From a virus (taxonomy: Duplodnaviria; Heunggongvirae; Uroviricota; Caudoviricetes), in IMG/VR virus record IMGVR_UViG_3300032116_012976: a DNA stretch of 64,000 bases, one strand, 5' to 3'. Shown here one piece after another: positions 21,950 to 55,240 of the stretch (within the stretch, counting starts at the first letter, position 1; the number at the start of each line of letters is the position of its first letter). The notes under the pieces were generated by a model. It was given only the letters and a program-made list of their open reading frames with translations, was not told the origin of the DNA and did no database searches. The position numbers and the translations under genes were made by a program.

Positions 21950-21978
21950 AGTATAGCACACCGACTATGATTGTGCAA
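21950..21978 (-). promoter_or_regulatory. sigma70-like promoter TTGCAC-N17-TATACT
   Basis: The minus strand reads TTGCACaatcatagtcggtgtgcTATACT upstream of the gene that starts at 21944. Confidence 0.55.
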
Positions 21979-22657
21979 CCAAGTCTGCAGCCATTGGAAA
22001 GATTGCAGTAATGGCCTGGGCACAAGCACGGGCAATATCCATGTGTTCTTTTTGGGTGCCATTGCTGGCACGAAGTTCGATGTAATGTATCCACGAGCGC
22101 AATGTACCGTTCATGTACATGCGGCTAACAGTGAGACCTTCGGGCAACACTGCACGAGCTTGTTCTTTGGCAATACCGTTGTCAATAGCCCACTTGTACT
22201 CTTTCTTCACAGCATACAACACACGCTTTTGAGCACGTTCCCACTCGTAAGCAAGAAGCTTCTGCTCCTCATCCTCCATGTCCAAGTCTACGCTGTTCTG
22301 TCTATTCCGGGTGTCTTGGAATCGTGCCTCACGTAACACAAACGCCTCATCGAGTTCAGCTGTAGGATCAGCATATCGCTGGGAGAACTCTTGAAAGCTG
22401 AAACTTCTGTGACGTAGAATCTGTCGCGCAATGTCACGGGTGGTGACAATTTCCATGCAGGCAGAGACCATTTCGAGTGGGCTCCAGTGCTGGTGCTTGA
22501 TAAGGTATCTGATGAGTCGTTCGCTTGTGTCTGTGTTGAATTGATTGGCTGGGTTGGACACACGGGCGCAATACGCAATGAGTTCCTGAGCGTCATCAAC
22601 ACCTTGGGATCTAAATGATTCAGTTGGTTGACTGTAGGAAAGTAGCTTAACATTCAT
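21965..22657 (-). CDS. thyX: flavin-dependent thymidylate synthase
   Basis: The ThyX signature RHRSFSFQEFSQRY (RHRxxSxxxxSxR) is present. Length 230 aa. Confidence 0.75.
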   Translation of the reverse strand: MNVKLLSYSQPTESFRSQGVDDAQELIAYCARVSNPANQFNTDTSERLIRYLIKHQHWSPLEMVSACMEIVTTRDIARQILRHRSFSFQEFSQRYADPTAELDEAFVLREARFQDTRNRQNSVDLDMEDEEQKLLAYEWERAQKRVLYAVKKEYKWAIDNGIAKEQARAVLPEGLTVSRMYMNGTLRSWIHYIELRASNGTQKEHMDIARACAQAITAIFPMAADLVAQS

Positions 22658-22959
22658 TTTAATTTGATAAGAATTTTATCAGTTTCGGGTTGTACAATTT
22701 CGGCAACAGCCGCGGCATCAACAATAAAGTTAACGGTATGAAGATCAGCTTCAATTTCACTAAGTGTGCGGCCCACAACAATCTCTAGTTCTTCACTGTC
22801 GAGACCCTGGCGCCGCAGTGTCTGCAGATTGATGGTTTTCTGTTTGCCACCTTTCTGCCGAATCACCACTTTTTTAATACATTCAAGTGGAATTTGTGTT
22901 TTGGTAACCTCATCAATGAGGTGCTCCCACTTGGCTAGAAATTCGTCACTGAACGGCAT
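22654..22959 (-). CDS. hypothetical protein
   Basis: A 101-aa ORF coupled to thyX. Confidence 0.35.
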   Translation of the reverse strand: MPFSDEFLAKWEHLIDEVTKTQIPLECIKKVVIRQKGGKQKTINLQTLRRQGLDSEELEIVVGRTLSEIEADLHTVNFIVDAAAVAEIVQPETDKILIKLK

Positions 22960-23674
22960 GTGCGGTTACCTTGGCAGGTCGACCACGTTTCTTTGCTGGT
23001 GCAGCCACAGGTGCTTGCACGGTGTTGTTTACAACCACTCCAGGAAACATACGTTCAGCTTCTTTTTTCATTCTAGCAGCTTCGTTGATCAAGCCCTGTG
23101 CGTCAGCTTCCATGCGCTTGGCTTGCGTTAACATATTTGATGCAAGTGTTTTGTCATCCAGTGCATTGGAGGCATCGGCTTGCATGACTGGCATGCCGGC
23201 ACGTTGTTGAGCAGCTTCTTGTTCTAAACGTTGACGTTTGAACTCTTGCTCGGCCTGGCGCTTTTGCGCAGGATCAACCAAGCCAGAATTTGAATCTAGA
23301 TCAGCCATGCGTTTGGCAGCATCTTGACCTGATTCCATTTCTTTGACCAGTCGATTGAGTTCGTCTAGCTTGACTGAACTGGTTGTGGTAGGAGTAACAA
23401 TAACTTGATTGGTAGGAATCTTTTTAAGCATGCCTTCTTTGTGCAATGCTTCAAGGATTGCACGACCATCAGGCAGCAAGCTACGATGTAATGCATTGGC
23501 TAATGAAGTTTCTTGTTGTCCTGTTGGACTTTCTAACACTCTCATTACGGTATCATGAATGTGTGTGGGCAACACATCTGGATAAATTACAAGGCACATG
23601 TGATCTTCGCCAGGTATCTCTCTGAATATAATTGCGACCTTTCGATCGCCGTGACGTCCTACGTGTTTAAGCAT
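22946..23674 (-). CDS. hypothetical protein with a low-complexity Q/A/E-rich C-terminus
   Basis: The probable start is MLKHVGRHG at 23674, with the strong SD AAGGAGATCAAA upstream. The ORF track gives a longer form extending to 23758. Confidence 0.4.
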   Translation of the reverse strand: MLKHVGRHGDRKVAIIFREIPGEDHMCLVIYPDVLPTHIHDTVMRVLESPTGQQETSLANALHRSLLPDGRAILEALHKEGMLKKIPTNQVIVTPTTTSSVKLDELNRLVKEMESGQDAAKRMADLDSNSGLVDPAQKRQAEQEFKRQRLEQEAAQQRAGMPVMQADASNALDDKTLASNMLTQAKRMEADAQGLINEAARMKKEAERMFPGVVVNNTVQAPVAAPAKKRGRPAKVTAHAVQ

Positions 23675-23861
23675 TTTGATCTCCTTGTGCTTGTTGTGCT
23701 TGTAGTTGAGCTTGACTATGGTCGAGAAACTTAGACAGTTTGTCATAGAGTCCACCAACAGTGCTCATTTCGGCTGCTTTGAATGCACCCCGATTGCAAG
23801 CCGCTTCGAGAAGCGACTTCATTGAAGCCATATCGGCTAGGGTAAGTTGTACATTTTCCAT
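23667..23861 (-). CDS. hypothetical small protein
   Basis: A 64-aa ORF whose stop overlaps the downstream start (ATGCTTAA). Confidence 0.3.
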   Translation of the reverse strand: MENVQLTLADMASMKSLLEAACNRGAFKAAEMSTVGGLYDKLSKFLDHSQAQLQAQQAQGDQNA

Positions 23862-23899
23862 ACAGATATTTAATATATAAACATCTGACGGAAATGTTT

Positions 23900-24106
23900 T
23901 TATGGGGTATTTTGGAAGAATTTGTTGGCCTTTTGGACAGCCTCTTCAATGGTCAGCGCAGGCACTATCACAAATGCCTGGTTGCTCACTATCTCCATGT
24001 CGTAAGGTATGCTACCAGTAAAACAAAAATCTTCTGGCACTTCCACCTGCACTTCAAAGTCCTGCATGCGGCGTGCTCGATCAATTACGTCAAGATGATC
24101 GCTCAC
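23900..24106 (-). CDS. hypothetical small protein
   Basis: A 68-aa ORF in a minus-strand gene train. Confidence 0.3.
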   Translation of the reverse strand: MSDHLDVIDRARRMQDFEVQVEVPEDFCFTGSIPYDMEIVSNQAFVIVPALTIEEAVQKANKFFQNTP

Positions 24107-24291
24107 AGGATCTTACGCTCGTGGATCAGTGTTTCAAAGGTATCCCAGACTTTTTGGAACTTGCGTTCGTAGTAGTCAATCAGGACCTTGGTGTCTTCAA
24201 TGCTGGCACCTTGATCAATGTACATTTGCAAATCATTCGTGATCTTCCAGCACTCCATAATTTCTTGCTCAAAATCAAAACGGTCACTCAT
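24103..24291 (-). CDS. hypothetical small protein
   Basis: A 62-aa ORF with a 4-bp overlap to its neighbours. Confidence 0.3.
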   Translation of the reverse strand: MSDRFDFEQEIMECWKITNDLQMYIDQGASIEDTKVLIDYYERKFQKVWDTFETLIHERKIL

Positions 24292-24569
24292 TTGAACTCC
24301 TTTAGTTCTTTGGGTTTCACAAAAATAAAATTATGCACTCGGCCATCCAGCTTGATAGGCAAATCCAAATGCACACTCACACGCGGACCTTCTACTAAGT
24401 TTATCTGCGTGTCATTGCCTACAGTGCCTCGGAATGGAATTTTGTTCCAAGTGCCTTGCACACGGTCTCCTATAAACCAAGTTGGCTTATATCCCACACG
24501 ATTAAAATAATCAGTTTGATTACCCACGGGGCTGACTCCATTCATCACGTGCCAGTTTGAACTCTGCAT
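24288..24569 (-). CDS. hypothetical protein
   Basis: A 93-aa ORF with a 4-bp overlap. Confidence 0.3.
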   Translation of the reverse strand: MQSSNWHVMNGVSPVGNQTDYFNRVGYKPTWFIGDRVQGTWNKIPFRGTVGNDTQINLVEGPRVSVHLDLPIKLDGRVHNFIFVKPKELKEFK

Positions 24570-24659
24570 ACACTCGGCGGAGCATGGTCACCACAGGAAT
24601 AAAGAAAAAGCCCGCAATAAATCCATACAGCAACCACTTTACGGCTTCCCATAAATCCA

Positions 24660-25105: not shown

Positions 25106-26416
25106 TTACTTTTCCTCGTAGTAGGCGTATTGACCCCAGGGCGGAACAATGCTGTCGGTGCCATGCAGTATCCATACAGTGTCTGCATAATTCTCATCAC
25201 CCCACGAACCAAACGGGTAGCCGTCTGTAAACACAACCAGACGCTTGGGCTCAATTTCATTTTCTTTGAGATAGCGGAAGATAGCATCAAAGTCTGTTCC
25301 GCCGCCACCTGCGACTTCGTAATCACAAATACCGTCCAAATTGTCCGAGTCGTATTGTGCAGGGTTATAACACTCGGTATCAAAGGTAACCACATGGATT
25401 CGGTATGCAGGGAACGATTCCATGATGCCTTGGATTTCGCTTAAGAAGTCCTTGAGCATGCTCTCGCTAATGGATCCACTTGCATCCAACGCCACTGCAA
25501 TATCAATCATAGGATCCAGCTTCATGCCTGGCATCACAGCATCCATGTGCCAACCTTTGCGGCTGGCTCGCATCCATGTGTAGTCTGACTTGATGGTTGA
25601 CTCCAATTGCATACGGAGCAATTCGCGCCAGTTCATCTTGGGCTCGGTCAAGTCCTGAATCAGACGTTTGACACCTGCGGGCAAGTTACCTGCTCCATCC
25701 ACTGTAGCGGCAGCCGCTAACATGGCTTCCTTGATCTCGTCCTTAATTGCTTGACGCTCTTCGGGTGTGAGTTTGGGGCGACCCTTGCCTTTGCCTTCCT
25801 CGTCTCCGTCTCCGTCACCATCTGCGGGATCGCCATCACCGTCCAGATGGTCGTCCAACAACTTGTCAACAAGGTCGCTCAAGTTAATTTTCTTGGCGTT
25901 CTTCATCAAGTCATCATACACTTCCTCCGAACTCATACCCTCATACTTCTTGTCATACAGGCAAGGCACGGAAGTAATGAACTCACCCACATTGTGCTTT
26001 TTCAAGTCTGCGTTAACACAGAAGTCATTGGCAACGTTCCAAATCTGCGGGTCCCGCTCGCCACGGCGTCCAAAGTGGTCATACACACAATGCAACACCT
26101 CATGTCCAAACAAGAATTCAACTTCTTTGGGCTTGAGCAATTTAATGAACTTGCAGTTATAGTAGAAATTGCGTCCATCCGTTGCGGCAGTAGGACACCA
26201 TTCGTCAGCGTTCACCAACTTCAAACGAGTAGCAAGATTGCCAAAGAAACTGGCCTTAAGCAACAAACCCACACGGGCAGTAATCAATTGTTCACGCACC
26301 TCGCGATCCAGTTTGGGATCCATCTTGCCCAATAGATTTTTAAACTTGTCTGCTTCTTTGGAGTCAGCAGTGGTGCCTGCTTTGGCATATAACATGTCTG
26401 GATTGAAATATTGCAT
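25106..26416 (-). CDS. vWA-domain protein with an N-terminal HExxH metallopeptidase-like motif (DUF2201/CobT-like)
   Basis: HExxH motif (HEVLHCVYDHF). MIDAS-like DIAVALDASGS. Block ...VVFTDGYPFG. The start is MQYFNPDM at 26416, with RBS AAGGAAC upstream and a promoter at 26451-26489. Confidence 0.6.
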   Translation of the reverse strand: MQYFNPDMLYAKAGTTADSKEADKFKNLLGKMDPKLDREVREQLITARVGLLLKASFFGNLATRLKLVNADEWCPTAATDGRNFYYNCKFIKLLKPKEVEFLFGHEVLHCVYDHFGRRGERDPQIWNVANDFCVNADLKKHNVGEFITSVPCLYDKKYEGMSSEEVYDDLMKNAKKINLSDLVDKLLDDHLDGDGDPADGDGDGDEEGKGKGRPKLTPEERQAIKDEIKEAMLAAAATVDGAGNLPAGVKRLIQDLTEPKMNWRELLRMQLESTIKSDYTWMRASRKGWHMDAVMPGMKLDPMIDIAVALDASGSISESMLKDFLSEIQGIMESFPAYRIHVVTFDTECYNPAQYDSDNLDGICDYEVAGGGGTDFDAIFRYLKENEIEPKRLVVFTDGYPFGSWGDENYADTVWILHGTDSIVPPWGQYAYYEEK

Positions 26417-26841: not shown

Positions 26842-27927
26842 TTAGGCTGATGCCTGCAAGATGTACTTGCCGTATTTGCTGTGGAACTCGTCAAAGTTCT
26901 TGAGCTTGGTGGGCAAGAACGGCAAGTCGTATGTGGTAAGTGCAATACGAGCACCCATCACAGTGAGCTCAGTCTCAAAGTTCTTCATCATGAAACCCAG
27001 GAAGTTATCCGCCATCTCATGGAACTTCTTGTCCTCAACCTTCTTCTCCACTGCATCCTTGAGCTCATAGCACATGGAGATAACCAGTGAGTACATGGCA
27101 CTGACCTCTTTCACGTTCAAGTCCTTGACCTTGCCTGCCAACACATCTGCAGGGTTGGGCATCTTGCTGGACACCTTGCGGTGGGCCATGAACTTAACTG
27201 CAAGACCTTCGCCCACAGTACCAGCAATCAAGTTGGTAAGGGTATCATTGTCTCCATCCTCGTCCTCCAACAGCTGGCTCACAAAGGTCCAGGTACGTGG
27301 AGTAGCAAAGGCACGGCTAGAACTCTTGGCATCAAAGTCGTACAAGTCCTGCTTGGCAAAACTCAAGTAACCCACCACGTCCTTGTGGATTTTGTTTTTA
27401 ACAGCCCAGTCTTGGTAGCTGGCAAAGTCCACTTTCATTTCCTGGTGCAGGAAACGGTTTGCAAGCGGAGTAGGCATGCGGTAGGTAACACCCTTGTCCG
27501 ACTCACGGTTACCTGCGGCAACCATCACAACGTTCTTGGGCAAGTGGTACTTGCCAATGCGTCGATTCAGAATCAACTGGTATGCGGCACTCTGCACTGA
27601 CGGAGCCGCAGAGTTGAGCTCGTCCAAGAACAGTACCACAATGGGATACTGGCTGGCAGTAGCCTCATCAGGCAATTCCACAGGAGGTGCCCAATCCATG
27701 ACACCTTTGTCTTTGTTGTAATAGGGAATGCCACGGATGTCTGTGGGCTCCATCTGACCCAAGCGGAGGTCAATCATGAGTCCGTCAAGTTCTTTAGTAA
27801 TGCCCTCAACCAGCTCTGACTTGCCGATGCCGGGAGGACCCCACAGGAACAACGGACGCTGAACTTTAAATGCTTTGAGCAGGCTTTTACGTGCCTGGAC
27901 GGAATTGACGGTGCGGGTATCTGACAT
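26842..27927 (-). CDS. MoxR/CobS-type AAA+ ATPase
   Basis: Walker A motif FLWGPPGIGKSELVEG. Length 361 aa. It is adjacent to the vWA partner, a typical pairing. RBS AAGGACACAGCCCATG. Promoter at 27962-27990. Confidence 0.7.
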   Translation of the reverse strand: MSDTRTVNSVQARKSLLKAFKVQRPLFLWGPPGIGKSELVEGITKELDGLMIDLRLGQMEPTDIRGIPYYNKDKGVMDWAPPVELPDEATASQYPIVVLFLDELNSAAPSVQSAAYQLILNRRIGKYHLPKNVVMVAAGNRESDKGVTYRMPTPLANRFLHQEMKVDFASYQDWAVKNKIHKDVVGYLSFAKQDLYDFDAKSSSRAFATPRTWTFVSQLLEDEDGDNDTLTNLIAGTVGEGLAVKFMAHRKVSSKMPNPADVLAGKVKDLNVKEVSAMYSLVISMCYELKDAVEKKVEDKKFHEMADNFLGFMMKNFETELTVMGARIALTTYDLPFLPTKLKNFDEFHSKYGKYILQASA

Positions 27928-27961: not shown

Positions 27962-27990
27962 AGTATAACTGAAGTTGATTTATTGGTCAA
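27962..27990 (-). promoter_or_regulatory. sigma70-like promoter TTGACC-N17-TATACT
   Basis: Upstream of the MoxR/CobS-like gene. Spacer exactly 17 nt. Confidence 0.6.
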
Positions 27991-28768: not shown

Positions 28769-28798
28769 CAAAAAAAAAGCCCTACATGTTGTAGGGCT
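28769..28798 (-). terminator. rho-independent terminator
   Basis: On the minus strand, the hairpin agccctacaacatgtagggct is followed by T9. It lies downstream of the dioxygenase-like gene. Confidence 0.6.
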
Positions 28799-33449: not shown

Positions 33450-33683
33450 TTATTCTACTACTTTACAATAACGGCACTGAAATGCAAATGCTAATTTTTG
33501 ATGAGTTTTTCTCTCACCATTGTCTTGCCATTCGTATTCAATCCAGTCACCGTCTACTGTGACAATTTTGACTTCGCGGTTACTGCCGTCGGCAGGTGCC
33601 CAGCGTTGACCGCTTGCAAGCTCGTCGGCCGGGAAGAAGTGGCCACAAACAAGGTTGCGACCGTTTACAGTTTCAATTCTCAT
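33450..33683 (-). CDS. hypothetical protein
   Basis: A 77-aa ORF with a promoter at 33710-33738. Confidence 0.35.
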   Translation of the reverse strand: MRIETVNGRNLVCGHFFPADELASGQRWAPADGSNREVKIVTVDGDWIEYEWQDNGERKTHQKLAFAFQCRYCKVVE

Positions 33684-33709: not shown

Positions 33710-33738
33710 ATTATAGCAGATCAGGAATTTTTGGTCAA
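33710..33738 (-). promoter_or_regulatory. sigma70-like promoter TTGACC-N17-TGCTATAAT
   Basis: The minus strand reads TTGACCaaaaattcctgatctgcTATAAT. Confidence 0.6.
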
Positions 33739-34608
33739 TCACACTAAAGTATTAGAAATGTTGCAGTGATCAAAGTTAAGAGCAATGCGATGCACCACTC
33801 GATTCTGAATGTTTTCACAGCGCCATCTTTTGTGAATACTTAACCATTGTTCACTTAACACAATGTCACCGTCTTGCCAATCGTGGTGATATGTGTATTT
33901 TTCTTGCTCCACATGTTGTCGTAATTTTTGAATTAGGGCATCGCTTTTGTCTTTGTCAAAACCCAGTATCTGATGAATTTGTAAAAACGAAAAAAACATG
34001 CCTGTGACACCAGCCTGGTTGGTGTGTAACAAACTTGGATACCAATTGTGGTTGATGGCATTTGAATCTCGACTGGTGATTGTGTAAGTGTCTTCAGAGA
34101 TCACCCTAGCATCAAACCCCATGACCAGTTTTAAATCTTTGATTTGTTCTTTGAGTTCTTGGTCAAGATCTTGATAACTCAAAATGTTGTTGATCCAACT
34201 GGTTCGGCTGCCAACAGAATCTTTTACTGAATACAACCAAATCAACGGATCTCGGTCTTCACTACCGGTTCTATTGCAGTGCCAATCTAGATCACTCACA
34301 TGTTCAAACACACCTGGTTGTCCATGATGGTGACCACCGCCACCTACTCTGACAATTTTACCACGCCCGCCTTGTACTAATTTTGTGCCCGGTGTTGGCG
34401 TATTAGCCGGCGCCACTTGCTCACATGCACCAATTTTTTCACAGATGTCAACTTCGTCTCCGGGCAAAAGGTGTTGATCGCGTATCACAACCACGGTGTC
34501 TTTGGCAGCAAGCCAAGCAATGGTATTCATCTCTTGCTGTGAAGCAGAACGTAAATCAATATCAGTAATGATTGAAGTCCAACCATTTTCGTGTAGTTGT
34601 ATTTTCAT
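33739..34608 (-). CDS. TauD/TfdA-like dioxygenase-superfamily protein, paralog (tentative)
   Basis: Motif DLDWHCNRTG. Paralog of 31787..32698. Confidence 0.3.
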   Translation of the reverse strand: MKIQLHENGWTSIITDIDLRSASQQEMNTIAWLAAKDTVVVIRDQHLLPGDEVDICEKIGACEQVAPANTPTPGTKLVQGGRGKIVRVGGGGHHHGQPGVFEHVSDLDWHCNRTGSEDRDPLIWLYSVKDSVGSRTSWINNILSYQDLDQELKEQIKDLKLVMGFDARVISEDTYTITSRDSNAINHNWYPSLLHTNQAGVTGMFFSFLQIHQILGFDKDKSDALIQKLRQHVEQEKYTYHHDWQDGDIVLSEQWLSIHKRWRCENIQNRVVHRIALNFDHCNISNTLV

Positions 34609-35797: not shown

Positions 35798-35799
35798 AG

Positions 35800-42612: not shown

Positions 42613-42809
42613 TTGGGTAAGATACGGTTGTATACTACTTAGGACCCTCTGCCTCCTGGAATGCTATTCATGCGACCATAGGCGTGTGACCAAACTGGTG
42701 TCTGGGCAAACTTGGGTAGCAGTGAACAATATTGTGTTTTCATCATAAGTCCTATTGTACAGTATTTACCTTTTGAGGTCAACCACTGTGTTAAAGTTAT
42801 TTAGCCTTT

Positions 42810-42884
42810 CGGCTGAATTGGTTGCGGGGGAAGGAATCGAACCTCCGTCTCCCAGGTTATGAGCCTGGTGGTCTACCGCTGACG
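42810..42884 (-). tRNA. tRNA-fMet(CAT), putative initiator
   Basis: Anticodon loop CTCATAA. A C1:A72 mismatch, as in bacterial initiator tRNA. The anticodon stem CCAGG/CCTGG has two of the three initiator G:C pairs. Confidence 0.55.
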
Positions 42885-44014
42885 TACCCCGCGATTGAAT
42901 TATTTATATAGAAACACACTCTATGCTTGGGGAACAATTCATTGAATTGAGCAACCACCAACGGGTACGGAGTGCGTTTGTATATAAAGTGGCGGACTGA
43001 GAATACATCCTAACCCAGTAACACCTCGGACATTATTACAAACCTTGCGAGTCTGCTTTCTTCCGATTTCCACTGCAACCATATTGCTATGTATCACAGT
43101 CTGTTACCAGTATCGCCGTTTTTAAAGACAGGCAGTAGTCTTGTCATCACATGCTACTCTACACCATCTATCCCGTTGACCTTTAGAGCCATTCACTGTC
43201 GCTAAACAGTTACGAAACTTCCAGTATAAACAGATTTCACCTTGCGAGTTACGTCTGACTGTATTGCCTTGCGGCTACAGCATTAGATACTTTTCACACA
43301 TGACCGAGTCAGTCTTTGCTTTTATGTTAGATAGTGGTTTTGAAGCCACAGCCTATTCCTTAACAGGGAATTGCTCTACGATGAGCTATATCAACCTACT
43401 GCGATGTGCTGACTCAGTTGCTTCATACTCTTTTGGAATACAAAATACAACACACCACGTTCCTTTTGTCTTGCGAACTACTCAGACGTCTTTTGCGATC
43501 AGTGTCGGGTCTCGGCTTTCGCGTACCTCCACCAACCACTCAAACTGCATACGAGCCCTTGGGTGCAACCCCTCGGACCGATACGCTACCCTTTCTCATA
43601 CCAATTAACTGGGCTGGTTTTGTATAGAAGTCAGCACCACCTGTTACTTTTCTGCAACTCCGGTTACCCTTGCGGGCCGGTAAGTTACAGCTCTTTCCTA
43701 TACTCCCAGCGTCATTGTTACAACCACCGGTCTTATCAGTGATCGGATCCTCACGGACCTGAGCAGGCTTGTTTACATGAACCATTGCTGGCGGACTTAT
43801 GTAGGCATACATCCTTTGGCTGGGTCACCCCAGTTATTCTTCGTACAGCTGGGCGAACCATACTGCACAGGACAATAAACTGCCCTATGTATCTATTGTA
43901 AGACAAACGTCTTTTGTTGTCAAACAGTTTTGGATAAATTTGTTGTTTATCTATCCAAAATAGTCTGTAACAGTTTTCTGCAGTCGTGTTACAGTGGGCA
44001 AATAAGTACCCCAC

Positions 44015-44986
44015 ATGATCACTGAAATCTTAACCTATCACCACAGTCTCGACTGGAACATTGAACAATTCGTTGATAGCACATGTCTAGCAAACATTGT
44101 TCAGCCACACTGGCCAATGGTAACTTCTTCCAAAGGAGGATTGATACCAACAAATAAACCCAGCCGAGACTTTTTTGAGCTCAATAAAAAACGAGGACGT
44201 CCTACTGAACTTAGGAACAGTACCATTGACGCCTTGGTCAGTCTTGTGGCAACAAAATTGCATCTCAACGGATTTGTTACGAATGTGGTAGCAGAATGCA
44301 GTGGAAGCATGCATGCCTTGTACACTGCATCCATGGTGAGCTTGCAACACCAATTACCAGTGATTGTTTTTTGTGCTGATAATTTAGTTGATGACGAACT
44401 TCACATGTGGCGATTTGCCAGTATGGGTGCATTGGATCAATCCTCAGGAAGAGCATTTGACTCAACCAGTACTGGATTTCGAATGGGTAGAGGCATGGCT
44501 GCAATGTTGATAAAACATCCAAGTGTAAAATTCAACATGAGTGCATTTGCCACAATCAGCAATTATATCTTTCGTACCAACCCCACACTCATAGCCAATC
44601 CAGGTGATGCGCACCAATTGGCCAGAGATATTTCTGGCATCAATTTTGACACCATTGATTTTTGGAATGCACATGCAACAGGCACTCCAGTGGGAGATCA
44701 ATTTGAGTACAATGTTTTTAATTCTTTAGTTCACAAAGACATACCTATTGTCAGCTACAAAAGCCGCATAGGGCACTGTATCTCAGCCAGCGGCGCCATT
44801 GAAATGTGCATGAGTTTTGACGATTACCGTGCAAAAACCCTAAGACCCAATGTGTTAGCTGGTGATCTCATAGTCAAAGATTCAAGGATCATCGTAGATG
44901 CTGTGCCGTTTCCGGGCAAACGCATACTCAAGGCCAATTTTGGATTTGGCGGCAAAAACAGTTTTTGCCAAATTGACATTGAATAG
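44015..44986 (+). CDS. beta-ketoacyl-ACP synthase (FabF/FabB)-like protein lacking the N-terminal ~100 residues; possible gene remnant
   Basis: KAS motifs AECSGSMHAL (active-site Cys region), NAHATGTPVGD, KSRIGHCISASGAIE and NFGFGGKNSF. The alignment to FabF begins around residue 100. It is flanked by more than 1 kb of non-coding sequence on each side. Confidence 0.55.
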   Translation: MITEILTYHHSLDWNIEQFVDSTCLANIVQPHWPMVTSSKGGLIPTNKPSRDFFELNKKRGRPTELRNSTIDALVSLVATKLHLNGFVTNVVAECSGSMHALYTASMVSLQHQLPVIVFCADNLVDDELHMWRFASMGALDQSSGRAFDSTSTGFRMGRGMAAMLIKHPSVKFNMSAFATISNYIFRTNPTLIANPGDAHQLARDISGINFDTIDFWNAHATGTPVGDQFEYNVFNSLVHKDIPIVSYKSRIGHCISASGAIEMCMSFDDYRAKTLRPNVLAGDLIVKDSRIIVDAVPFPGKRILKANFGFGGKNSFCQIDIE

Positions 44987-45676: not shown

Positions 45677-46063
45677 CGCCATAAACTTGGTGGACAACAA
45701 TGGGAATCTAACCCACTTCTTCCTCGTATGCTATTACGAAGTTTCATACCAGCCTCAGGTAATTGACACATCATGTCCATAAACTTGGCGGTCCCAGGGG
45801 GTAACGATCCCCCTCCTCAGCAGTGACAGTGCTGTGTGCGTCCATGAACACCTTGAGACCAAATTAGGATAAGCTACTGGGTTCCACGCCAGCCCTTAAT
45901 TGAGCAGTTACTCTGTCCATCTCATTTATTCAAAGTCTGTGTGCAGTGAGATTCTGCCTATCAGAGTCTGTAAGGGTAGTCTCCATCCTTACGCTTACGG
46001 TCTTCTGCCACCGGATCTCTATCGCTAATCAAACGCTACTTTAACGAAAGTAGTAACGGGATT

Positions 46064-46138: not shown

Positions 46139-46473
46139 ATAGTTCACTATATGAAAACACATTAGGGAAGTTCTTGACACGCATCACCAACTTGCATCAA
46201 GACCTCATTACAGGCCCAGTAGTTCCGCCGCCTTCCTGGAGTTTGGTGTAGCCTTATCCCTCACGCTCGATGGTGTCTCGCGCTACTCTTAGGCCCTCCT
46301 GCTTCATGGGTATCCGGCTCGAATCAGCCTTTGTTCACCCCTAACGGACTAGGTAACCCTAATGTGTTTACATATAGTGCCCAGAACTTAATCTGGGGCA
46401 CTATACAAAATTAAATTTTTAACGAACTTCAAAGTAGTTTCGATCAACTGCCTTTGTTTTCTAACTAGTCTCT

Positions 46474-46502
46474 AGTATAGCATCTCCTGCTTTACTGGTC
46501 AA
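46474..46502 (-). promoter_or_regulatory. sigma70-like promoter TTGACC-N17-TGCTATACT (copy 1 of a tandem pair)
   Basis: It lies within a 26-nt direct repeat ttttctaact.gt.tctagtatagca. It is oriented toward tRNA-Glu and the non-coding region. Confidence 0.5.
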
Positions 46503-46572
46503 CTTGTTTTGTAAATGCCCCGCCTTGTTGCAGGGTCTTTACAAACTTCGCTGTTTTTCTAACTTGTGTCTA

Positions 46573-46601
46573 GTATAGCACCAATCCAATTATTGGTCTA
46601 C
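46573..46601 (-). promoter_or_regulatory. sigma70-like promoter TAGACC-N17-TGCTATACT (copy 2, weaker -35)
   Basis: The second copy of the direct repeat. Confidence 0.4.
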
Positions 46602-46607: not shown

Positions 46608-46638
46608 AAAAAAACCCGCCTACTTGGCGGGTTTTTTG
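46608..46638. terminator. bidirectional rho-independent terminator downstream of the porin-like gene
   Basis: aaaaaaacccgcctacttggcgggtttttt. Confidence 0.65.
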
Positions 46639-46656: not shown

Positions 46657-47547
46657 TTAGAACTGTACGACCAACCCGCCTGCTACTTGTTTGACATCAG
46701 TGGCTGCTGAGGTTCCCTCAACTGTACGATACAAAACTTGTGCATAGGTCTTTTTGCTGAAAGCATACTCAGCACCTACGTTGTAACTCTTGATGCCATT
46801 TTCAATGCGACCATAGCTGGCCTTCACTGTGACTGGTCCACCAAGTTTGTGTGCCACGCCGACCAACTGAGCACGGTTGGTGTTGGCAGCAACGCCTTTG
46901 TTGTCGCTTGCGCTGGCAAACACAGTGGTTGCACCAAATTTAGCACGAGCAGCCAACACGTCACTGGTTTCTGCGCCAGCTTCGTAACGAGCATAAGTCA
47001 ACACAGCAGGTCCAACTGCGGCAATCACGGATGCGGCATAAGGATCAGCGGCAGTGCCAACAGCACCAGTGCTACGATCAAAGTTAGCAGAGACATTGCC
47101 AAAGTTCACAGAAGTGAAAGCGGCATTGCTCAAACGCAAACCACGCAGGTTATGCACGTCGGCAGCTGAGCTACCAATCAATGTGCCAAATGGATCATTG
47201 TCGCTGATGGCCAAGAAGTGAGTGTGAACATTGCGACCAAGATCAACGCTACCCATTTTGTGAGCAATACCCACGGTGCTTTGGCGATCGCCAAGTCTAG
47301 TGTCAGTACCAGTGTCTGGGCTGTTGGCTTGGATGCCGGTCTCGTATGTGGCACGAGCTGTTAATCCGCCACCTAAGTTTTCAGTAGCACGAATGCCAAA
47401 GTGACTCAAGTCATTGGCCATGCCTTGCACGGTGGAAGCACCAGTTTTGGTGTTGTCAAGGTAAGTGCCAACACGACCATAGATACCAACTTGTGCGCTT
47501 GCAACACCAGCAACTGCCAGGGTCAACGCAATTAGAACTTTCTTCAT
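46657..47547 (-). CDS. outer-membrane beta-barrel porin-like protein
   Basis: Signal peptide MKKVLIALTLAVAGVASAQ. A Gly/Thr/Ala-rich body. C-terminal ...GGLVVQF ending in Phe. Its own promoter and terminator are present. Confidence 0.5.
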   Translation of the reverse strand: MKKVLIALTLAVAGVASAQVGIYGRVGTYLDNTKTGASTVQGMANDLSHFGIRATENLGGGLTARATYETGIQANSPDTGTDTRLGDRQSTVGIAHKMGSVDLGRNVHTHFLAISDNDPFGTLIGSSAADVHNLRGLRLSNAAFTSVNFGNVSANFDRSTGAVGTAADPYAASVIAAVGPAVLTYARYEAGAETSDVLAARAKFGATTVFASASDNKGVAANTNRAQLVGVAHKLGGPVTVKASYGRIENGIKSYNVGAEYAFSKKTYAQVLYRTVEGTSAATDVKQVAGGLVVQF

Positions 47548-47595: not shown

Positions 47596-47625
47596 ATTAT
47601 ATAGCACAAACACTGAGAATGTCAA
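47596..47625 (-). promoter_or_regulatory. sigma70-like promoter TTGACA-N16-18-TGCTATATAAT
   Basis: Upstream of the porin-like gene. Confidence 0.5.
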
Positions 47626-47644
47626 AGAAAATGGCTACTTTCGC

Positions 47645-47680
47645 AGCCATTTTGGTGGTTTCTGTTACGAGGTATTTCCT
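47645..47680. terminator. terminator-like hairpin between the minihelix region and the porin promoter
   Basis: aaaatggct-actttcgc-agccatttt. Confidence 0.35.
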
Positions 47681-48024
47681 ACCCTAGACGACCTTAAGCG
47701 GCCATCAAGAATTTTTCATCATTTGCAGATAAAAGTTTTGCTTGATTTACGGTCATCGCCTACCGTGCTGTCCACTCTGTTACTCTTTGCCCTGTCGAAT
47801 CTAGGTCAGGCCCATCATAAAGAAACTTAATCTACGCTTAATGTTGTTAACAACAAGCATAATATTGGAAAAACAATTAATAAAAATTTTGCTAAATTTT
47901 CCATATTACCATAACTCACAGTTTTTTATTTTCTCTTCGTCCAATGTGGTATCACGTGTAAAATAAAATACACCAAACACTAACCAAAATAACAAAAATA
48001 AAACATAACCTATCATTAAACTTC

Positions 48025-48070
48025 CTTATGGTGGACCTGGGGGGATTCGCACCCCCGTCCAGAACACTTT
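48025..48070 (-). ncRNA. tmRNA/tRNA 3'-end-like minihelix (T-arm, acceptor 3' strand and CCA) without a 5' partner
   Basis: The minus strand reads GGACGGGGGTGCGAATCCCCCCAGGTCCACCA. This resembles tmRNA 3' ends (GGACG.GGGTTCAA.TCCC.CCAGCTCCACCA). No complementary 5' acceptor strand was found within 400 nt. Confidence 0.35.
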
Positions 48071-48278
48071 TCTCTCGGCTTCATACAGCAATAACTCGCA
48101 GTATATATTTATTCTTTGGGCTTGTCAACTGCTTTGGAGATGATGTCATACACTTGTGCGTATGCATCAGTAATTTTGTCTAGTTGTTGTTCCGACACCA
48201 AGTCTGTGTCCTCCAGACTGACCAAGTCTCGGGCTAGATTTTCTTGTAGTTTTTTTATGGGATTGAGCACATACCTAT

Positions 48279-49002: not shown

Positions 49003-49077
49003 TGGTGGGCCAACTTGGAATTGAACCAAGACTCGACCGATTATGAGTCGGTTGCTTTACCATTAAGCTATTGGCCC
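49003..49077 (-). tRNA. tRNA with anticodon CAT (third CAT tRNA; Ile2/Met)
   Basis: Anticodon stem ACCGA/TCGGT. Anticodon loop CTCATAA. Confidence 0.6.
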
Positions 49078-49085
49078 TGTGCTAC

Positions 49086-49114
49086 ATTGTAGCAGGAAAA
49101 CTATTTAGTGTCAA
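49086..49114 (-). promoter_or_regulatory. sigma70-like promoter TTGACA-N17-TGCTACAAT
   Basis: Immediately upstream of the tRNA trio at 48819-49077. Confidence 0.55.
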
Positions 49115-49481
49115 CTGTTCCGTCGGCCAGGTGGTCATGTTTGATTTCTTTTACAGGATGCCCTAAAATGCTGGCAACAGAATTTTTGTAAGCAATACGT
49201 TTGTTGTTATGATCTCTAATGGCAATGGCTCGGCGACCAATCTCCTGAAGGCTCAACATTTGCTCCACGCCTGATTTGAGCTGCCATTCTAGATCCCAGA
49301 TAGCATGATGGATGTCGGTCATTGCTTGAATGTCCTCATCTAGTTCTGCGCTTTGTGGTAGTTGTCGAAACTTGTCCTCGTACCAATCAAGTTCAACTTG
49401 GTTGGCGCCTTTGGTTCGTGCATGTTTTACTCTGGCAATGCAGAGTCGATCAATTAGTTCTAATACTGGAAGAAATTCCAT
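49101..49481 (-). CDS. hypothetical protein
   Basis: A 126-aa ORF with a consensus promoter at 49511-49539. Confidence 0.35.
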   Translation of the reverse strand: MEFLPVLELIDRLCIARVKHARTKGANQVELDWYEDKFRQLPQSAELDEDIQAMTDIHHAIWDLEWQLKSGVEQMLSLQEIGRRAIAIRDHNNKRIAYKNSVASILGHPVKEIKHDHLADGTVDTK

Positions 49482-49510: not shown

Positions 49511-49539
49511 ATTATACAAAAATGCTAAGTGTTTGTCAA
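49511..49539 (-). promoter_or_regulatory. sigma70-like promoter TTGACA-N17-TATAAT
   Basis: The minus strand reads TTGACAaacacttagcatttttgTATAAT. Confidence 0.6.
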
Positions 49540-50300
49540 CGGTCTTTGTCAGTTCTTACCAATTGAATTAAGCGGTATCCAGGATCAAATTCCCACCATT
49601 TTTTGCCAAACTGTGGATCTGCGGCAGCGGCGTGATGATTGTTGTGCCAGCCCTCTCCACCAGTCAAATATCCTACCAGCAGGTTATTTGAACTTTGATC
49701 ACGTGTGTCAAAATTTCTATATCCTGATGGACTGTGAGTGAGAGAGTTGGTCAGTGAACTGGCATGTTGCAACAATAGTGACGGAACCAAATAAGCATAC
49801 ACTACTGCATAAGGATCTATCATGTAAACTGCCACCCCGACCAAGATAGTGTACAACCAATGATTGTAGTACATGTGCATGTGAAATTTGGATTTCACAA
49901 TCTCTGGAGCATAACTTAATTTTGGAGTAGCAGGTGTGAGTCTAAATTGCACGGCTAGATAACCGTATACCGCAGGTGAGTGCGGATCATCTTTTGTGTC
50001 AGAGTGTCTATGATGCGCTCGATGTATTGCTACCCAATACAACATTGGTAAAGTTGTGCCAGGAATAGCAATCAATGTTCCTAGATATTCAAACCATTTT
50101 GGTGCTTGAAAAGAACGATGGGTGATCAGCCGATGAACTGTTACAGTTCCGACTACCATCTTGATATAGTAGACCAACAGACATATTGCCCACTGCCATG
50201 CTTCACTGTTGAAGATAAAGTAGACCAGGATCACATGTAGACAGGCACTGTATGCAATCATTTCGTTGTGCGAAGGCACAAACCAGTTTTTCTTTTTCAT
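49536..50300 (-). CDS. membrane fatty-acid desaturase, third copy
   Basis: His boxes HRLITHRSF, HRAHHRH and HNNHHAA. Confidence 0.7.
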   Translation of the reverse strand: MKKKNWFVPSHNEMIAYSACLHVILVYFIFNSEAWQWAICLLVYYIKMVVGTVTVHRLITHRSFQAPKWFEYLGTLIAIPGTTLPMLYWVAIHRAHHRHSDTKDDPHSPAVYGYLAVQFRLTPATPKLSYAPEIVKSKFHMHMYYNHWLYTILVGVAVYMIDPYAVVYAYLVPSLLLQHASSLTNSLTHSPSGYRNFDTRDQSSNNLLVGYLTGGEGWHNNHHAAAADPQFGKKWWEFDPGYRLIQLVRTDKDR

Positions 50301-50463: not shown

Positions 50464-50760
50464 TCATAGCCTGGAATCATAAGTGAAGGCAGCAAGATAT
50501 CGCATGCTGGCACGGCTGGGAATGTGCTGATTACAGAACCGTTGGTATGCCGCACGCCAACGCTTTTGGACAGGTGCTGGCGCATGGCAAGCAAGATAAT
50601 GCAAGTGGCCAAATCTGCGCCCAATGCTGATGTGATTGGGCTTCCAGCCTGCAGGATACCATTTGTCGCGAGTTTGCCAATTGTAGTTTACCCAGACACC
50701 CATTCGGCGTTCTTGCATGATATACTTTTTAGATATATCTTGTGGTCTAAATCGGTTCAT
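50464..50760 (-). CDS. hypothetical protein
   Basis: A 98-aa ORF. Confidence 0.3.
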   Translation of the reverse strand: MNRFRPQDISKKYIMQERRMGVWVNYNWQTRDKWYPAGWKPNHISIGRRFGHLHYLACHAPAPVQKRWRAAYQRFCNQHIPSRASMRYLAAFTYDSRL

Positions 50761-51551
50761 TTTTGCATCATCAGCGCATTGAAGTTTGCAGGAACAACAA
50801 TTGTTTGCACACGACCGTTCTTGATACCTTCTGAGATATTCATCATAGCCTGCGCTTGCATGTAAGCAATTGACTGAGCACCTTGATTACTCAATGCTTG
50901 CATACGTTCTGCTTCCATCTTAGCAGTCTTAACTTCAACTTCTTTTTGTTTCAATTCATTCTTGGCACGAACCAACTCATTTGCACTCGCAACCACAGAA
51001 TCTGCAGGTACAATATTCCGAATCAACACTTGACCAACAACCAAACTACCATCAAGTTTTTCATCAGCCAAACTCTTTTGAATTTGTTCTTTAATTGCTT
51101 GTTCCATCACTTGGCGATTATCAGCCATGTCTAGTGCCTCGTACTTTCGGGCTTCTTTGTAGATGGCATTACGAGTGGTTTGAACCATATAGTTGTACAT
51201 CAAGTAGATGTCGCCGTTGTGCCGAGCATGGAATGCTTGACTCTTTTGGCTATACAACTCGGCTACCTGTGCTTGATTGATGTTATAGATAACCACTGCA
51301 TCAAAGTCTTTCATTGTTGAGTTATCTTTAGCAACAGGTGTCATGTCCTCCAGTTTGACATTAACGTCCTTGATTGGGAATGTAAGAACATCACCCCAAA
51401 AGGTTTGATTAAACGAGCCAGGCATTAATTCACCTTGCTGGACTTGTTTATCAAAGCCAACACGTACACCAACTTCACCTGTTTCGATACGAGTACAACC
51501 TGTTGCCAGCACAGCCGCGGCAAGAACGGAGAGAGTCAAAATACGTTTCAT
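50757..51551 (-). CDS. SPFH/band-7 (prohibitin-like) lipoprotein
   Basis: Lipobox LATGC. A coiled-coil/SPFH-like body. Length 264 aa. Confidence 0.45.
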   Translation of the reverse strand: MKRILTLSVLAAAVLATGCTRIETGEVGVRVGFDKQVQQGELMPGSFNQTFWGDVLTFPIKDVNVKLEDMTPVAKDNSTMKDFDAVVIYNINQAQVAELYSQKSQAFHARHNGDIYLMYNYMVQTTRNAIYKEARKYEALDMADNRQVMEQAIKEQIQKSLADEKLDGSLVVGQVLIRNIVPADSVVASANELVRAKNELKQKEVEVKTAKMEAERMQALSNQGAQSIAYMQAQAMMNISEGIKNGRVQTIVVPANFNALMMQK

Positions 51552-51560: not shown

Positions 51561-51749
51561 TTAAAAAAGTACCACAAGGGCAAGTAGACTACCAAAAGTA
51601 AGTATAGCACAAAATGCACTGTAAGTCAAGAGTTTTACCAAACTCCACGATTCTTTTCCGGACATGTTCCGTAGGTACTGAATGCCGAAAAAGAACATGC
51701 CAAACACAACAACAAAAGCCAATAGGATTCTAATCATCACACTCTCCAA
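51561..51749 (-). CDS. small membrane protein
   Basis: A 62-aa hydrophobic ORF. Confidence 0.3.
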   Translation of the reverse strand: MESVMIRILLAFVVVFGMFFFGIQYLRNMSGKESWSLVKLLTYSAFCAILTFGSLLALVVLF

Positions 51750-53965: not shown

Positions 53966-53966
53966 G

Positions 53967-54359
53967 TTACTCTCCTTGTGTCTGCAGGGCTTTCAAAAAC
54001 TCCACACATGCGGCCTCGGTGCGCTTGGTCACTACCACCCGGCCACCCCAGAAGCCCACATACAGACTGCGGTGCTCCACAAACTTCACTTCACCGTCAG
54101 CACCAGTATGCTTTTGACGAGCCGCTGGCTTTGCAGGCACTGCCTTTTTTGCAGGTGCTTTAGGCACTGCGGCCACCACAGGCTTTGCTGTCACTGCCTT
54201 TGCAGGTGCAGGCACTGCAAGCGGACGATGCTCAAAGCCATGTTTCTTATCATACTTGGCAATGGCTTTTTCATCCATGCCCCATGTGGCCAGTAGTCGG
54301 CGAACTTCAGTGCCGGGCAGTTGATTCCAGTGTATGATAGGGTCAGTCCAGTTGGTCAT
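53967..54359 (-). CDS. hypothetical protein with an A/K/P-rich (histone H1-like) segment
   Basis: Segment PAPAKAVTAKPVVAAVPKAPAKKAVPAKPAARQK. Confidence 0.35.
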   Translation of the reverse strand: MTNWTDPIIHWNQLPGTEVRRLLATWGMDEKAIAKYDKKHGFEHRPLAVPAPAKAVTAKPVVAAVPKAPAKKAVPAKPAARQKHTGADGEVKFVEHRSLYVGFWGGRVVVTKRTEAACVEFLKALQTQGE

Positions 54360-54369
54360 GTTGGGCTCC

Positions 54370-54570
54370 TTAATAAGATTGATGTGAATGTCCGATACGA
54401 TACACGGGTGCGCCTGGCGTCAAATCATTTTCCGGAGTATACACTTCCGGCAACATGATATCCGCAAACTCACCGTAGGAGTAATAACCAGACTCGGTCA
54501 CTACCAAGCGAGCATCAGCGGGCAGGGCACGGAGTGCCTCAATCATTTGTGCTACAGTTATAGTGGTCAT
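54370..54570 (-). CDS. hypothetical small protein
   Basis: The start is the internal Met MTTITVAQ with RBS AAGGAG. The longer ORF-track form would run through the promoter at 54598-54626. Confidence 0.35.
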   Translation of the reverse strand: MTTITVAQMIEALRALPADARLVVTESGYYSYGEFADIMLPEVYTPENDLTPGAPVYRIGHSHQSY

Positions 54571-54597
54571 CTCAAGCTCCTTAGTGTCTATGTGTGT

Positions 54598-54626
54598 ATT
54601 ATAGCAAATTGGGAATTTTTGGTCAA
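54598..54626 (-). promoter_or_regulatory. sigma70-like promoter TTGACC-N17-TGCTATAAT
   Basis: The plus strand reads tgtgtgtattatagca...ttggtcaacc. Confidence 0.6.
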
Positions 54627-54823
54627 CCGTGCAGAGCAGTCCAGGTTTCCCAGGGCTGATCGCGAATGTATTGTATTGCCTTAACACCACCTTTAACCCT
54701 GCAGGCATACTGCATGGCTGTGGCAAATTTGCCACGCTGACGATGTGTTTTGCGAGCTAATCCTACCGGATTGAGCTTCCATTTCCACAGCGAGTCATAT
54801 TTGCCGCGAATCATCTTGTGCAT
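54623..54823 (-). CDS. hypothetical small basic protein
   Basis: A 66-aa ORF with RBS AGGAG. A perfect-consensus promoter lies at 54851-54879. Confidence 0.35.
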   Translation of the reverse strand: MHKMIRGKYDSLWKWKLNPVGLARKTHRQRGKFATAMQYACRVKGGVKAIQYIRDQPWETWTALHG

Positions 54824-54850
54824 GGTGGCTCCTCTGTTGTCTATGTGTGT

Positions 54851-54879
54851 ATTATAGCAAAACGGTGATTTGGTGTCAA
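54851..54879 (-). promoter_or_regulatory. sigma70-like promoter TTGACA-N17-TGCTATAAT (perfect consensus)
   Basis: The minus strand reads TTGACAccaaatcaccgttttgcTATAAT. Confidence 0.65.
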
Positions 54880-55205
54880 CCGTTTTGCTTCACGCGAACG
54901 TCCGTGTTCAGCGCAGGTGCATACTTTTGTATTAACTCGCGCTCCAACTTATGTGCGGCATCTTTGCCACGCACAATGTCCACGATAGCCACGTTCATTG
55001 CTTCAGTACCGTTTGCGCGAATTGCTTCGTACAAGTTCCAGCCTTTGTCTTCTGTGCGGCTACGGTAGATGTGCTTGTTCACACGGCTACGGAGCGACAT
55101 GTTGATTGTGCGCTGGGTTTTTGCGGTAATACCAATGTAGTACTCAAATCCAATTTGGATCATGTACACTATGTGGCTGCGATCAGTACGTTTCTTTCTC
55201 ATCAT
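54876..55205 (-). CDS. GIY-YIG nuclease-domain protein
   Basis: Motif [15 protein letters not shown] (GIY...YIG) with R and N downstream. Length 109 aa. Promoter at 55212-55240. Confidence 0.5.
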
Positions 55206-55211
55206 GTGTGT

Positions 55212-55240
55212 ATTATAGCATTTTGGGCATTTTTGGTCAA
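55212..55240 (-). promoter_or_regulatory. sigma70-like promoter TTGACC-N17-TGCTATAAT
   Basis: Upstream of the GIY-YIG gene. Confidence 0.6.

Follow-up and report, generated by a model that had tools for sequence, protein, structure and literature searches.

The window analysed here is a 64,000-nt stretch of a virus of the class Caudoviricetes (IMG/VR record IMGVR_UViG_3300032116_012976), and all site coordinates follow its full numbering. Between 19.4 and 55.3 kb it is transcribed nearly wholly leftward. This block holds small open reading frames (ORFs) without family matches, 30 tRNA genes, a permuted transfer-messenger RNA (tmRNA) and a GOLLD RNA, together with auxiliary genes for ThyX, an epimerase, two TauD dioxygenases, a rubrerythrin, a methyltransferase, a desaturase, an SPFH protein, AAA proteins and a porin. 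A preliminary description of the stretch had reported at least 14 minus-strand copies of a host-type promoter in its intergenic regions. The family is real but was undercounted: about 20 copies populate the block, and we consider it likely that they are functional sigma70-class (housekeeping) promoters.

Repeated promoter-like elements in the leftward block

We inspected the sequence at all 14 places given in the preliminary description and found a minus-strand TTGAC-type -35 together with a TATAAT-type -10 at each of them (14/14). Twelve of the positions are exact; 26451 is corrected to 26442 (9 nt off) and 46573 to 46572. Taken literally, as TTGACM-N17-TGNTATAAT (17 nt and then TGnTATAAT), the motif has two matches against 1.44 expected, which is chance level. 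We therefore re-derived the geometry, which is TTGACM-N14-TGC-TATAAT, with the TGC counted within the 17-nt spacer. Allowing up to 3 mismatches, the corrected pattern gave 20 matches, compared with an expectation of 5.22 and a shuffle maximum of 11; 18 of them lie on the minus strand, and the two on the plus strand are weak. A 40-nt position weight matrix built from the sites, the scan that had been proposed earlier, returned 17 minus-strand matches and one plus-strand match at 12 bits or more, compared with 0.76 in shuffled sequence, and so bears out both the enrichment and the minus-strand bias. A generic sigma70 score that is independent of the sites (at least 10 of 12 hexamer matches, a TG bonus, spacers of 16-18 nt) gave 22 minus-strand and two plus-strand matches against 3.6 in shuffles (both strands). 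The same motif emerged from a de novo repeat finder as the top direct-repeat family (D1/D5/D6).

At least seven sites had been missed (35770, 39409, 39725, 42754, 43895, 48100 and 51601), to which may be added a possible site at 25024 and a degenerate half copy at 55305. The spacers had been described as exactly 17 nt; this applies to 12 of the 14 original sites, 36401 and 47596 having 18 nt. Among the 22 generic minus-strand matches the spacer is 17 nt in 18, 18 nt in three and 16 nt in one, and 12 of the 22 carry the extended -10 TG at -15/-14. TTGAC is intact at 19 of the 23 listed sites, with exceptions at 21950 (TTGCAC), 46572 (TAGACC) and 39725 (TTTACA). Variation in the -10 (TATAAT, TATACT, TACAAT, TAAAAT) is confined to positions 3 and 5. 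The downstream ACACACA reported as a frequent companion is present, as ACACA(T), at about half of the sites. Most copies are 63-70% identical over 46 nt and share the functional positions alone; over the same length, identity rises to 83-85% among the three copies at 54.6-55.2 kb, non-contact positions included.

All credible copies fall within the leftward block, at 21.9-55.3 kb. Outside these limits the generic sigma70 scan found no credible site on either strand, only chance matches within coding sequence; the site-free blocks are 1-12.4, 15.8-19.4 and 55.3-59.6 kb on the plus strand and 12.4-15.8 and 59.6-64 kb on the minus strand. The predicted absence from the plus strand thus holds, weak or chance matches within coding sequence apart, and extends to the neighbouring gene blocks. 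The intergenic placement is also confirmed, 18 of the 22 generic minus-strand matches being intergenic or at gene edges, and the sites do lie on the coding strand, co-oriented with and ahead of mostly small genes. Predicted starts (+1, placed 7 nt 3' of the -10) lie 18-43 nt 5' of start codons with AAGGAG-type Shine-Dalgarno sequences. The sites associated with protein genes are given below, with -35, spacer length and -10; related metagenomic loci are denoted by L numbers.

21950-21978, minus strand: promoter TTGCAC-17-TGCTATACT, weak -35 and extended -10; at the 3' end of thyX, upstream of ORF 21615-21944; conserved in L012
26442-26470, minus strand: promoter TTGACG-17-TGCTATAAT; upstream of gene 25106-26416; counterpart in nearly all of 80 related loci
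27962-27990, minus strand: promoter TTGACC-17-TATACT; upstream of AAA ATPase gene 26842-27927; conserved in L012 and L020
28738-28766, minus strand: promoter TTGACC-17-TGCTACAAT; directly after terminator 28778-28798 (9-bp stem, T9), forming a stem-loop and promoter composite
33710-33738, minus strand: promoter TTGACC-17-TGCTATAAT; upstream of ORF 33450-33683, adjoining the stop codon of TauD-like gene 33739-34608
35770-35798, minus strand: promoter TTGACA-17-TGTTATACT; -10 bracketed by a perfect 13-bp inverted repeat
36401-36430, minus strand: promoter TTGACT-18-TATACT; upstream of rubrerythrin-like ORF 35939-36376; 18-nt spacer
47596-47625, minus strand: promoter TTGACA-18-TATAAT (or 16 nt to TATATA); upstream of porin gene 46657-47547; terminator hairpin 47628-47653 abuts the -35
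49511-49539, minus strand: promoter TTGACA-17-TATAAT; upstream of ORF 49101-49481; TGA of the -35 is the stop codon of fatty-acid-desaturase-like ORF 49536-50300
51601-51629, minus strand: promoter TTGACT-17-TGCTATACT; inside small ORF 51561-51737, upstream of SPFH gene 50757-51551; kept with both genes in L020
54598-54626, minus strand: promoter TTGACC-17-TGCTATAAT; ahead of 66-aa ORF 54370-54570, inside a block of ~460 bp missing in L004 and L008
54851-54879, minus strand: promoter TTGACA-17-TGCTATAAT; ahead of 66-aa ORF 54623-54823; TGA of the -35 is the stop codon of ORF 54876-55205
55212-55240, minus strand: promoter TTGACC-17-TGCTATAAT; predicted +1 at 55205 is the A of the ATG of GIY-YIG-like ORF 54876-55205

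At five sites (26442, 27962, 49511, 54598 and 54851) the TGA within TTGAC doubles as the stop codon of the upstream ORF. The -35 at 21950 is poor (TTGCAC), and this site would rely on TGcTATACT. The inverted repeat at 35770, AACAATGTAGAAC-N12-GTTCTACATTGTT (35756-35793, perfect over 13 bp), is centred on the -10 and has the look of an operator; a shared operator finds no support, since no other good copies occur within the window. The ORF at 54876-55205 encodes 109 aa with a weak Pfam match to GIY-YIG. Its ATG lies exactly 7 nt 3' of TATAAT, at the predicted +1, and is not preceded by a Shine-Dalgarno sequence (55203-55217); this implies that the mRNA has no leader. L004, L006, L007 and L008 share the arrangement, and in L008 the second ATG has been lost and the first kept. 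The porin gene (46657-47547, minus strand) encodes a protein of Gram-negative type (Porin_4, E = 2.8e-25) and has its own promoter and terminator; at least 120 metagenomic clusters of the clade to which this phage belongs contain porins of 85-96% identity.

The same promoter type stands ahead of the GOLLD RNA, the permuted tmRNA, tRNA clusters and the porin gene, a use that the preliminary description overlooked. Sites in the RNA-coding part of the block are as follows.

39409-39438, minus strand: promoter TTGACA-18-TAAAAT; predicted +1 2 nt 5' of tRNA-Pro (39400)
39725-39753, minus strand: promoter TTTACA-17-TATAAT; predicted +1 6 nt 5' of tRNA-Gly (39712)
42754-42782, minus strand: weaker promoter TTGACC-17-TACAAT; in a 418-nt gap upstream of tRNA-Trp
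43895-43923, minus strand: promoter TTGACA-17-TACAAT; preceded by a 12-bp hairpin; predicted +1 at 43888
46474-46502, minus strand: promoter TTGACC-17-TGCTATACT; preceded by a -19.6 kcal/mol hairpin and followed by a 329-nt ORF-free segment (46139-46467) and then tRNA-Glu
46572-46600, minus strand: promoter TAGACC-17-TGCTATACT; directly after strong terminator 46609-46637; first of two tandem units 98 bp apart
48100-48128, minus strand: promoter TTGACA-17-TATACT; predicted +1 at 48093, 3 nt before permuted tmRNA 47694-48090
49086-49114, minus strand: promoter TTGACA-17-TGCTACAAT; predicted +1 at 49079, 2 nt before tRNA-Met (49077), heading a Met-Arg-Leu tRNA cluster

The TTGACA sites of the window are mostly found ahead of RNA genes. 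Predicted starts fall 2, 2, 6 and 3 nt 5' of the mature ends of tRNA-Met, tRNA-Pro, tRNA-Gly and the permuted tmRNA. The ends of these RNAs do not depend on the promoter model, and their fit to it supports the identification of the repeats as promoters. The primary transcripts at 49077-49091, 39400-39414 and 39712-39730 (minus strand) are predicted to present RNase P with almost no 5' leader to remove. The permuted, two-piece tmRNA (47694-48090, minus strand; Rfam RF04321, 115 bits) has the ARAGORN-predicted tag ANDEKFLMAA; the hairpin 47628-47653 comes after it.

The conserved 3' domain of the GOLLD RNA is at 42994-43458 (minus strand; Rfam RF02032, 204 bits) and contains an embedded tRNA-like element (43325-43395). 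The predicted start at 43888 lies 430 nt upstream of this domain. In the GOLLD RNA env-38 the 5' domain, the variable part of GOLLD, comprises residues 1-420 (PMC12286853). Because the two lengths are so similar we take 43895 as the likely GOLLD promoter; the RNA would then probably extend to about 43888, with a predicted length of ~895 nt. ORFs in this stretch have poor coding scores.

Strong hairpins, some with a T-run, lie upstream of six or seven of the 22 sites in the window (28738, 43895, 46474, 46572, 47596 and 48100). Two of these belong to a tandem duplication with a 98-bp period (46446-46600, minus strand; repeat D16), in which a promoter, a transcript of ~45 nt and a hairpin are followed by the second promoter. 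The first unit (46572) may give a very short RNA, or it may serve only as a terminator-promoter spacer. Several gaps of 200-420 nt between tRNA genes are free of ORFs (46139-46467, 39048-39241, 41646-41856, 45861-46063 and 42401-42818, minus strand). The segment 46139-46467, downstream of 46474, has a predicted fold with a 13-bp closing stem (z-score -2.8). No Rfam family was found in the inter-tRNA gaps (200-330 nt) at permissive E-values, and the gaps do not align with one another; they may encode unknown non-coding RNAs.

Conservation in related jumbo-phage loci

DNA searches of INPHARED, for near and distant relatives, returned no match or a single 119-bp match, and thus no close cultured relative. 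The protein encoded at 25106-26416 places the window in the broad PA5oct / Rak2 / Atu_ph07 group of jumbo phages, with at most 46% identity. Homologues of this protein with 76-95% identity are present in more than 500 IMG/VR contigs, some of them 200-346 kb long, and we therefore conclude that the source is an abundant uncultured jumbo-phage clade. Retrieval anchored on the protein was far better than an exact-pattern IMG/VR scan for the promoter core, which recovered two unrelated contigs only. In this way ~90 metagenomic loci (1.5 Mb) were assembled for comparison.

The region upstream of the 25106-26416 homologue was compared in 80 loci. In nearly all of them we found TTGAC(C/G)-AWTAAWT-...-TG(C/T)TATAAT-AYACACAT followed by a AACAAAGGA-N-ATG leader, and these promoter elements persist while the core of the spacer and the sequence further upstream have become unalignable. 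In PA5oct, which this protein makes the closest cultured relative (46% identity), the orthologous position carries TTGCAG-17-TGtTATACT.

Within the 1.5 Mb of related loci, TTGACN-Nx-TATAAT occurs at 306 sites, with a spacer of 17 nt at 279, 18 nt at 22, 16 nt at 2 and 19 nt at 3. The TG-containing form is found 248 times on the gene strand and seven times on the opposite strand. A logo was drawn from 346 unique sites selected on the -35 (TTGAC) and the -10 (TAnAnT) only. Its free positions T-10 (76%), A-8 (88%), T-15 (70%), G-14 (68%), T-17 and C-1/A+1 are conserved, and the unselected flanks are flat. These are the free positions that a sigma70 promoter predicts, which argues for the promoter assignment; A-6 and T+2, which it does not require, are conserved as well. 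A Shine-Dalgarno sequence and the start of an ORF of at least 40 aa follow at 10-29 nt in 64% of 347 unique sites, compared with 4% of random positions. A hairpin with a T-run lies upstream of ~15% of the family sites, against 3% of random positions, and an A/T block of the UP-element kind is weak at -40 to -60 (at most 0.16 bit per position at -40 to -44, ~0 further upstream).

The clade has a signature of its own: rG before the -35, C-30 (57%), an A-tract from -29 to -24 (A-26 82%, A-25 68%), A-6 (77%) and a CAT initiator with T+2 conserved at 70%. Two correlated flavours can be told apart, the TTGACC sites being richer in TG, perfect TATAAT and CAT than the TTGACA sites (Fisher p = 2e-8 for TG). 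The hexamers, TG at -15/-14, T-17, the 17-nt spacer and the CA start are shared with canonical bacterial sigma70 promoters of the -35/extended -10 type. The strong A-tract and A-6 set the clade apart; both are outside the general sigma70 consensus.

Probable cassette turnover at 54.4-55.3 kb

The three promoters at 54.6-55.3 kb form the 5' end of the leftward block, beside a hairpin and the divergent plus-strand gene 55360-56433. Two further elements of this region are relevant here.

55268-55306, no strand assigned: symmetric stem-loop flanked on each side by a T-run (AAAAGTACTACTTTT...AAAAGTAGTACTTTT), where the leftward block and gene 55360-56433 diverge
55305-55333, minus strand: degenerate half promoter, a fourth copy; -35 and spacer retained, -10 replaced by TGAAAA

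The cluster had been proposed to be an early-region control hub. We find instead that each promoter is tied to one small ORF (the 109-aa GIY-YIG-like ORF and the two 66-aa ORFs). Moreover, L004 and L008, whose flanking genes are 80-100% identical in protein sequence to those of the window, lack a block of ~460 bp (about 54357-54818) that contains ORF 54623-54823, promoter 54598 and ORF 54370-54570; two of the three ORF-promoter units are thereby missing. In the alignment (A1) identity runs through TATAATACACACATAGACA, is interrupted by the gap and resumes at the Shine-Dalgarno sequence and ATG of gene 53967-54359, so that the junctions fall between the -10/leader and the Shine-Dalgarno/ATG. 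Where the window has the half copy 55305, the promoter is intact in L005, L006 and L007 and is accompanied by an extra ORF. L020 carries homologues of the window genes in a different order, with breaks at promoters, and has an extra ORF between two promoters, one of which is identical at 39 of 42 positions to the 55212 promoter. On this comparison 'plastic cassette region' appears a more fitting description of the cluster than 'control hub'.

A candidate for a different promoter class lies at the same divergence point. A T4-late-like box, TATAAGTA within CTATAAGTAACAGCATG (55340-55362, plus strand), stands 5 nt before the ATG of 55360-56433, which has no Shine-Dalgarno sequence, and is conserved in L003-L007; it may give rise to a leaderless transcript. 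In the other blocks only isolated candidates for the T4-late class TATAAATA were seen.

Promoter identity, alternatives and host

The hexamers, their spacing, the TG and the conservation of orthologous sites in relatives bear out the original assignment as sigma70-type promoters with an extended -10. The proposed elements are a -35 of TTGAC(C/A), a 17-nt spacer, TG(C) and a -10 of TATAAT, and initiation would occur at the A of the conserved CAT ~7 nt downstream. About 20 such promoters would be spread across 21.9-55.3 kb, each starting a short transcription unit, with probable read-through between stacked units where no terminator intervenes. Since every sigma70 contact element is near consensus, the host sigma70 holoenzyme is the most likely user. 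We infer that it would recognize the sites without phage factors and straight after entry of the DNA, as in the early or constitutive programmes of T4 and T5. The copies would also have a second, evolutionary role, which we regard as likely from the comparison of loci: near-identical copies may act as homology patches, between which recombination could insert, delete or swap cassettes of promoter and ORF and so give rise to the observed indels.

Several points weigh against this interpretation. Both 'host sigma70' and 'early' are deduced from resemblance to the consensus. A-26, A-25, A-6 and T+2 are conserved with no established sigma70 explanation, and another factor may be responsible. The UP-element-like A/T enrichment is weak, unlike that of T4 early promoters, and the stem-loop that defines the PeSL (promoter-early stem-loop) cassettes discussed below accompanies only a minority of sites, in the family as in the window. 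The logo and the site counts include orthologous copies and are thus partly non-independent. Finally, our survey covered the window and 10-kb flanks of its relatives, so that other parts of the genome may yet encode a sigma factor or an RNA polymerase of the phage.

Two known systems provide useful comparisons. The T4 early 'uber' promoters, which combine UP, -35, TGn and -10 elements, are used by the unmodified E. coli sigma70 holoenzyme (Hinton 2010, PMC2988021). Like the repeats described here they unite a near-consensus -35, TGn and -10 with a 17-nt spacer, occur in many copies ahead of small non-essential genes and tRNAs, and have extra family-specific consensus positions. However, the -35 is TTGACC/A here and of the GTTTAC type in T4, UP-element enrichment is weak here, and the phage is not T4-type, its nearest cultured relatives by one protein being PA5oct and the Rak2-type jumbo phages (about 46% identity or less). 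The PeSL elements are mobile regulatory cassettes of RB49/phi1, T4/PST and KVP40/nt-1 (Arbiol 2010, PMC2839356; Comeau 2014, PMC4122927). Those of RB49 have near-perfect sigma70 promoters, TTGACA-N17-TATAAT, and RB49/phi1 crossovers were mapped between the -10 and the Shine-Dalgarno/ATG (PMC2839356). The likeness to our repeats is considerable. In both cases the promoter copies are found on either side of small ORFans, within plastic regions, and delimit the indels that distinguish close relatives. Crossovers fall between the -10 and the Shine-Dalgarno/ATG, half copies in a degraded state occur near indels, and some copies have T-run stem-loops upstream. The differences are that the upstream stem-loop is present at a minority of copies here (15% in the family), that its sequence is non-uniform in the window, and that the lineage is another one. 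A uniform PeSL stem-loop sequence (GTAGTACT...AGTACTAC) is common in the relatives; within the window it occurs only at 28830 and 55268-55306.

The clade-specific positions raise the question of whether the sites are read by a phage-modified polymerase, or with a phage sigma factor or co-factor, as a middle-type class and not by the unmodified host holoenzyme; the family-specific positions in the spacer and at the start would then supply the distinguishing signal. Strong clade-wide conservation of the non-canonical A-26, A-25, A-6 and C-1/A+1/T+2 would fit a phage-factor class, as would the correlated TTGACC and TTGACA flavours. We nevertheless consider this improbable: a -35, TG and -10 near consensus at optimal spacing are what the unmodified holoenzyme prefers, and sigma appropriation of the T4 type replaces the -35, which is the best-conserved element here. 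In addition, no sigma-, AsiA- or MotA-like protein was found among the scanned proteins of the window, most of whose small ORFs are without any match. The copies might instead be mainly recombination or mobile cassettes of the PeSL kind, kept uniform by gene conversion and mobility, with promoter activity secondary. The L004/L008 junctions inside a promoter leader, the half copy at the deletion point (55305), the 39/42-identical promoter in another genomic context in L020 and the close identity of the 54.6-55.2 kb copies all fit such an origin. It is quite improbable as the principal explanation, since most copies share functional positions only, orthologues keep the sigma70 contacts while their spacers drift, and the motif precisely abuts the 5' ends of RNA genes. 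Moreover, the cassette explanation presupposes that the repeats are promoters, and it complements the sigma70 assignment more than it replaces it. That the repeats have no transcriptional role at all (a duplication relic, or a protein-binding or packaging signal) and resemble promoters by coincidence is scarcely credible. Dyad symmetry around the -35 or -10 at 35770, 54851 and 55212 would suit a binding signal, but conservation follows the sigma70 contacts position by position, the spacing is fixed at 17 nt, orientation is tied to gene direction, the distance to the Shine-Dalgarno/ATG and to RNA 5' ends is fixed, and the sites are retained at orthologous places in highly diverged genomes.

A combined proposal goes further. 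The A-tract at -29 to -24, A-6 and CAT, strongest in the TTGACC flavour, would constitute a phage promoter code read by a virion-delivered or early factor that favours phage over host promoters; alternatively, or in addition, the cassettes would be actively mobile, as mini-circles or through the leaderless GIY-YIG gene, and shuffle genes throughout a clade of very abundant, uncultured, freshwater jumbo phages. We regard this proposal as rather doubtful, and sigma70-class promoters used by the host remain our preferred assignment.

A host could not be read from the porin, whose 120 top matches are all copies from the same phage clade. Relatives L092-L095, including a 183-kb contig, were deposited in metagenome-assembled genomes labelled Haliscomenobacter, Bacteroidetes and Omnitrophota. 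Hosts from Bacteroidota or Omnitrophota were rejected, as they would be a poor fit to TTGACA/TATAAT promoters with strong Shine-Dalgarno sequences on what is generally known of promoters and ribosome binding sites in these groups, and the phage contigs in those assemblies are probably binning contaminants. Because of the classical -35 and -10 boxes and the strong Shine-Dalgarno sequences, the sequence features point to a host of proteobacterial type.

Strong sigma70-like promoters ahead of early or accessory genes and tRNAs are textbook features of large lytic phages such as T4, T5 and RB49. What is added here is PeSL-like behaviour outside the T4-type phages, the assignment of 5' ends, and a clade without a cultured representative. 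For an uncultured clade of jumbo phages, with metagenomic relatives in the hundreds, the sites provide a putative map of transcription in the region of accessory genes, tRNAs and non-coding RNAs, and assign likely promoters and 5' ends to the GOLLD RNA and to a phage-borne permuted tmRNA. The promoter model rGTTGACC-AAWAAT-N7-TGCTATAAT-N6-CAT can be used to annotate related contigs. Of greater interest than the promoters themselves is that they mark where small gene cassettes come and go among close relatives, which would extend beyond T4-type phages the idea that repeated early promoters serve as recombination joints for ORF cassettes.

Some neighbouring genes also deserve mention. The 1199-aa protein encoded at 15789-19388 was examined as a possible phage RNA polymerase; searches of Pfam, PHROG and PDB gave no match, and its one similarity, a weak one, is to Ralstonia phage RsoM2USA. 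At 1.9-11 kb (plus strand; 1896-7779 and 9547-11037) lie four radical-SAM-like genes in succession and a gene for a Nol-type carbamoyltransferase. A further radical SAM gene and a ketoacyl-synthase-like gene (40442-41527 and 44015-44986) are on the plus strand inside the minus-strand tRNA region. Together these genes suggest an unusual modification or biosynthesis cluster.

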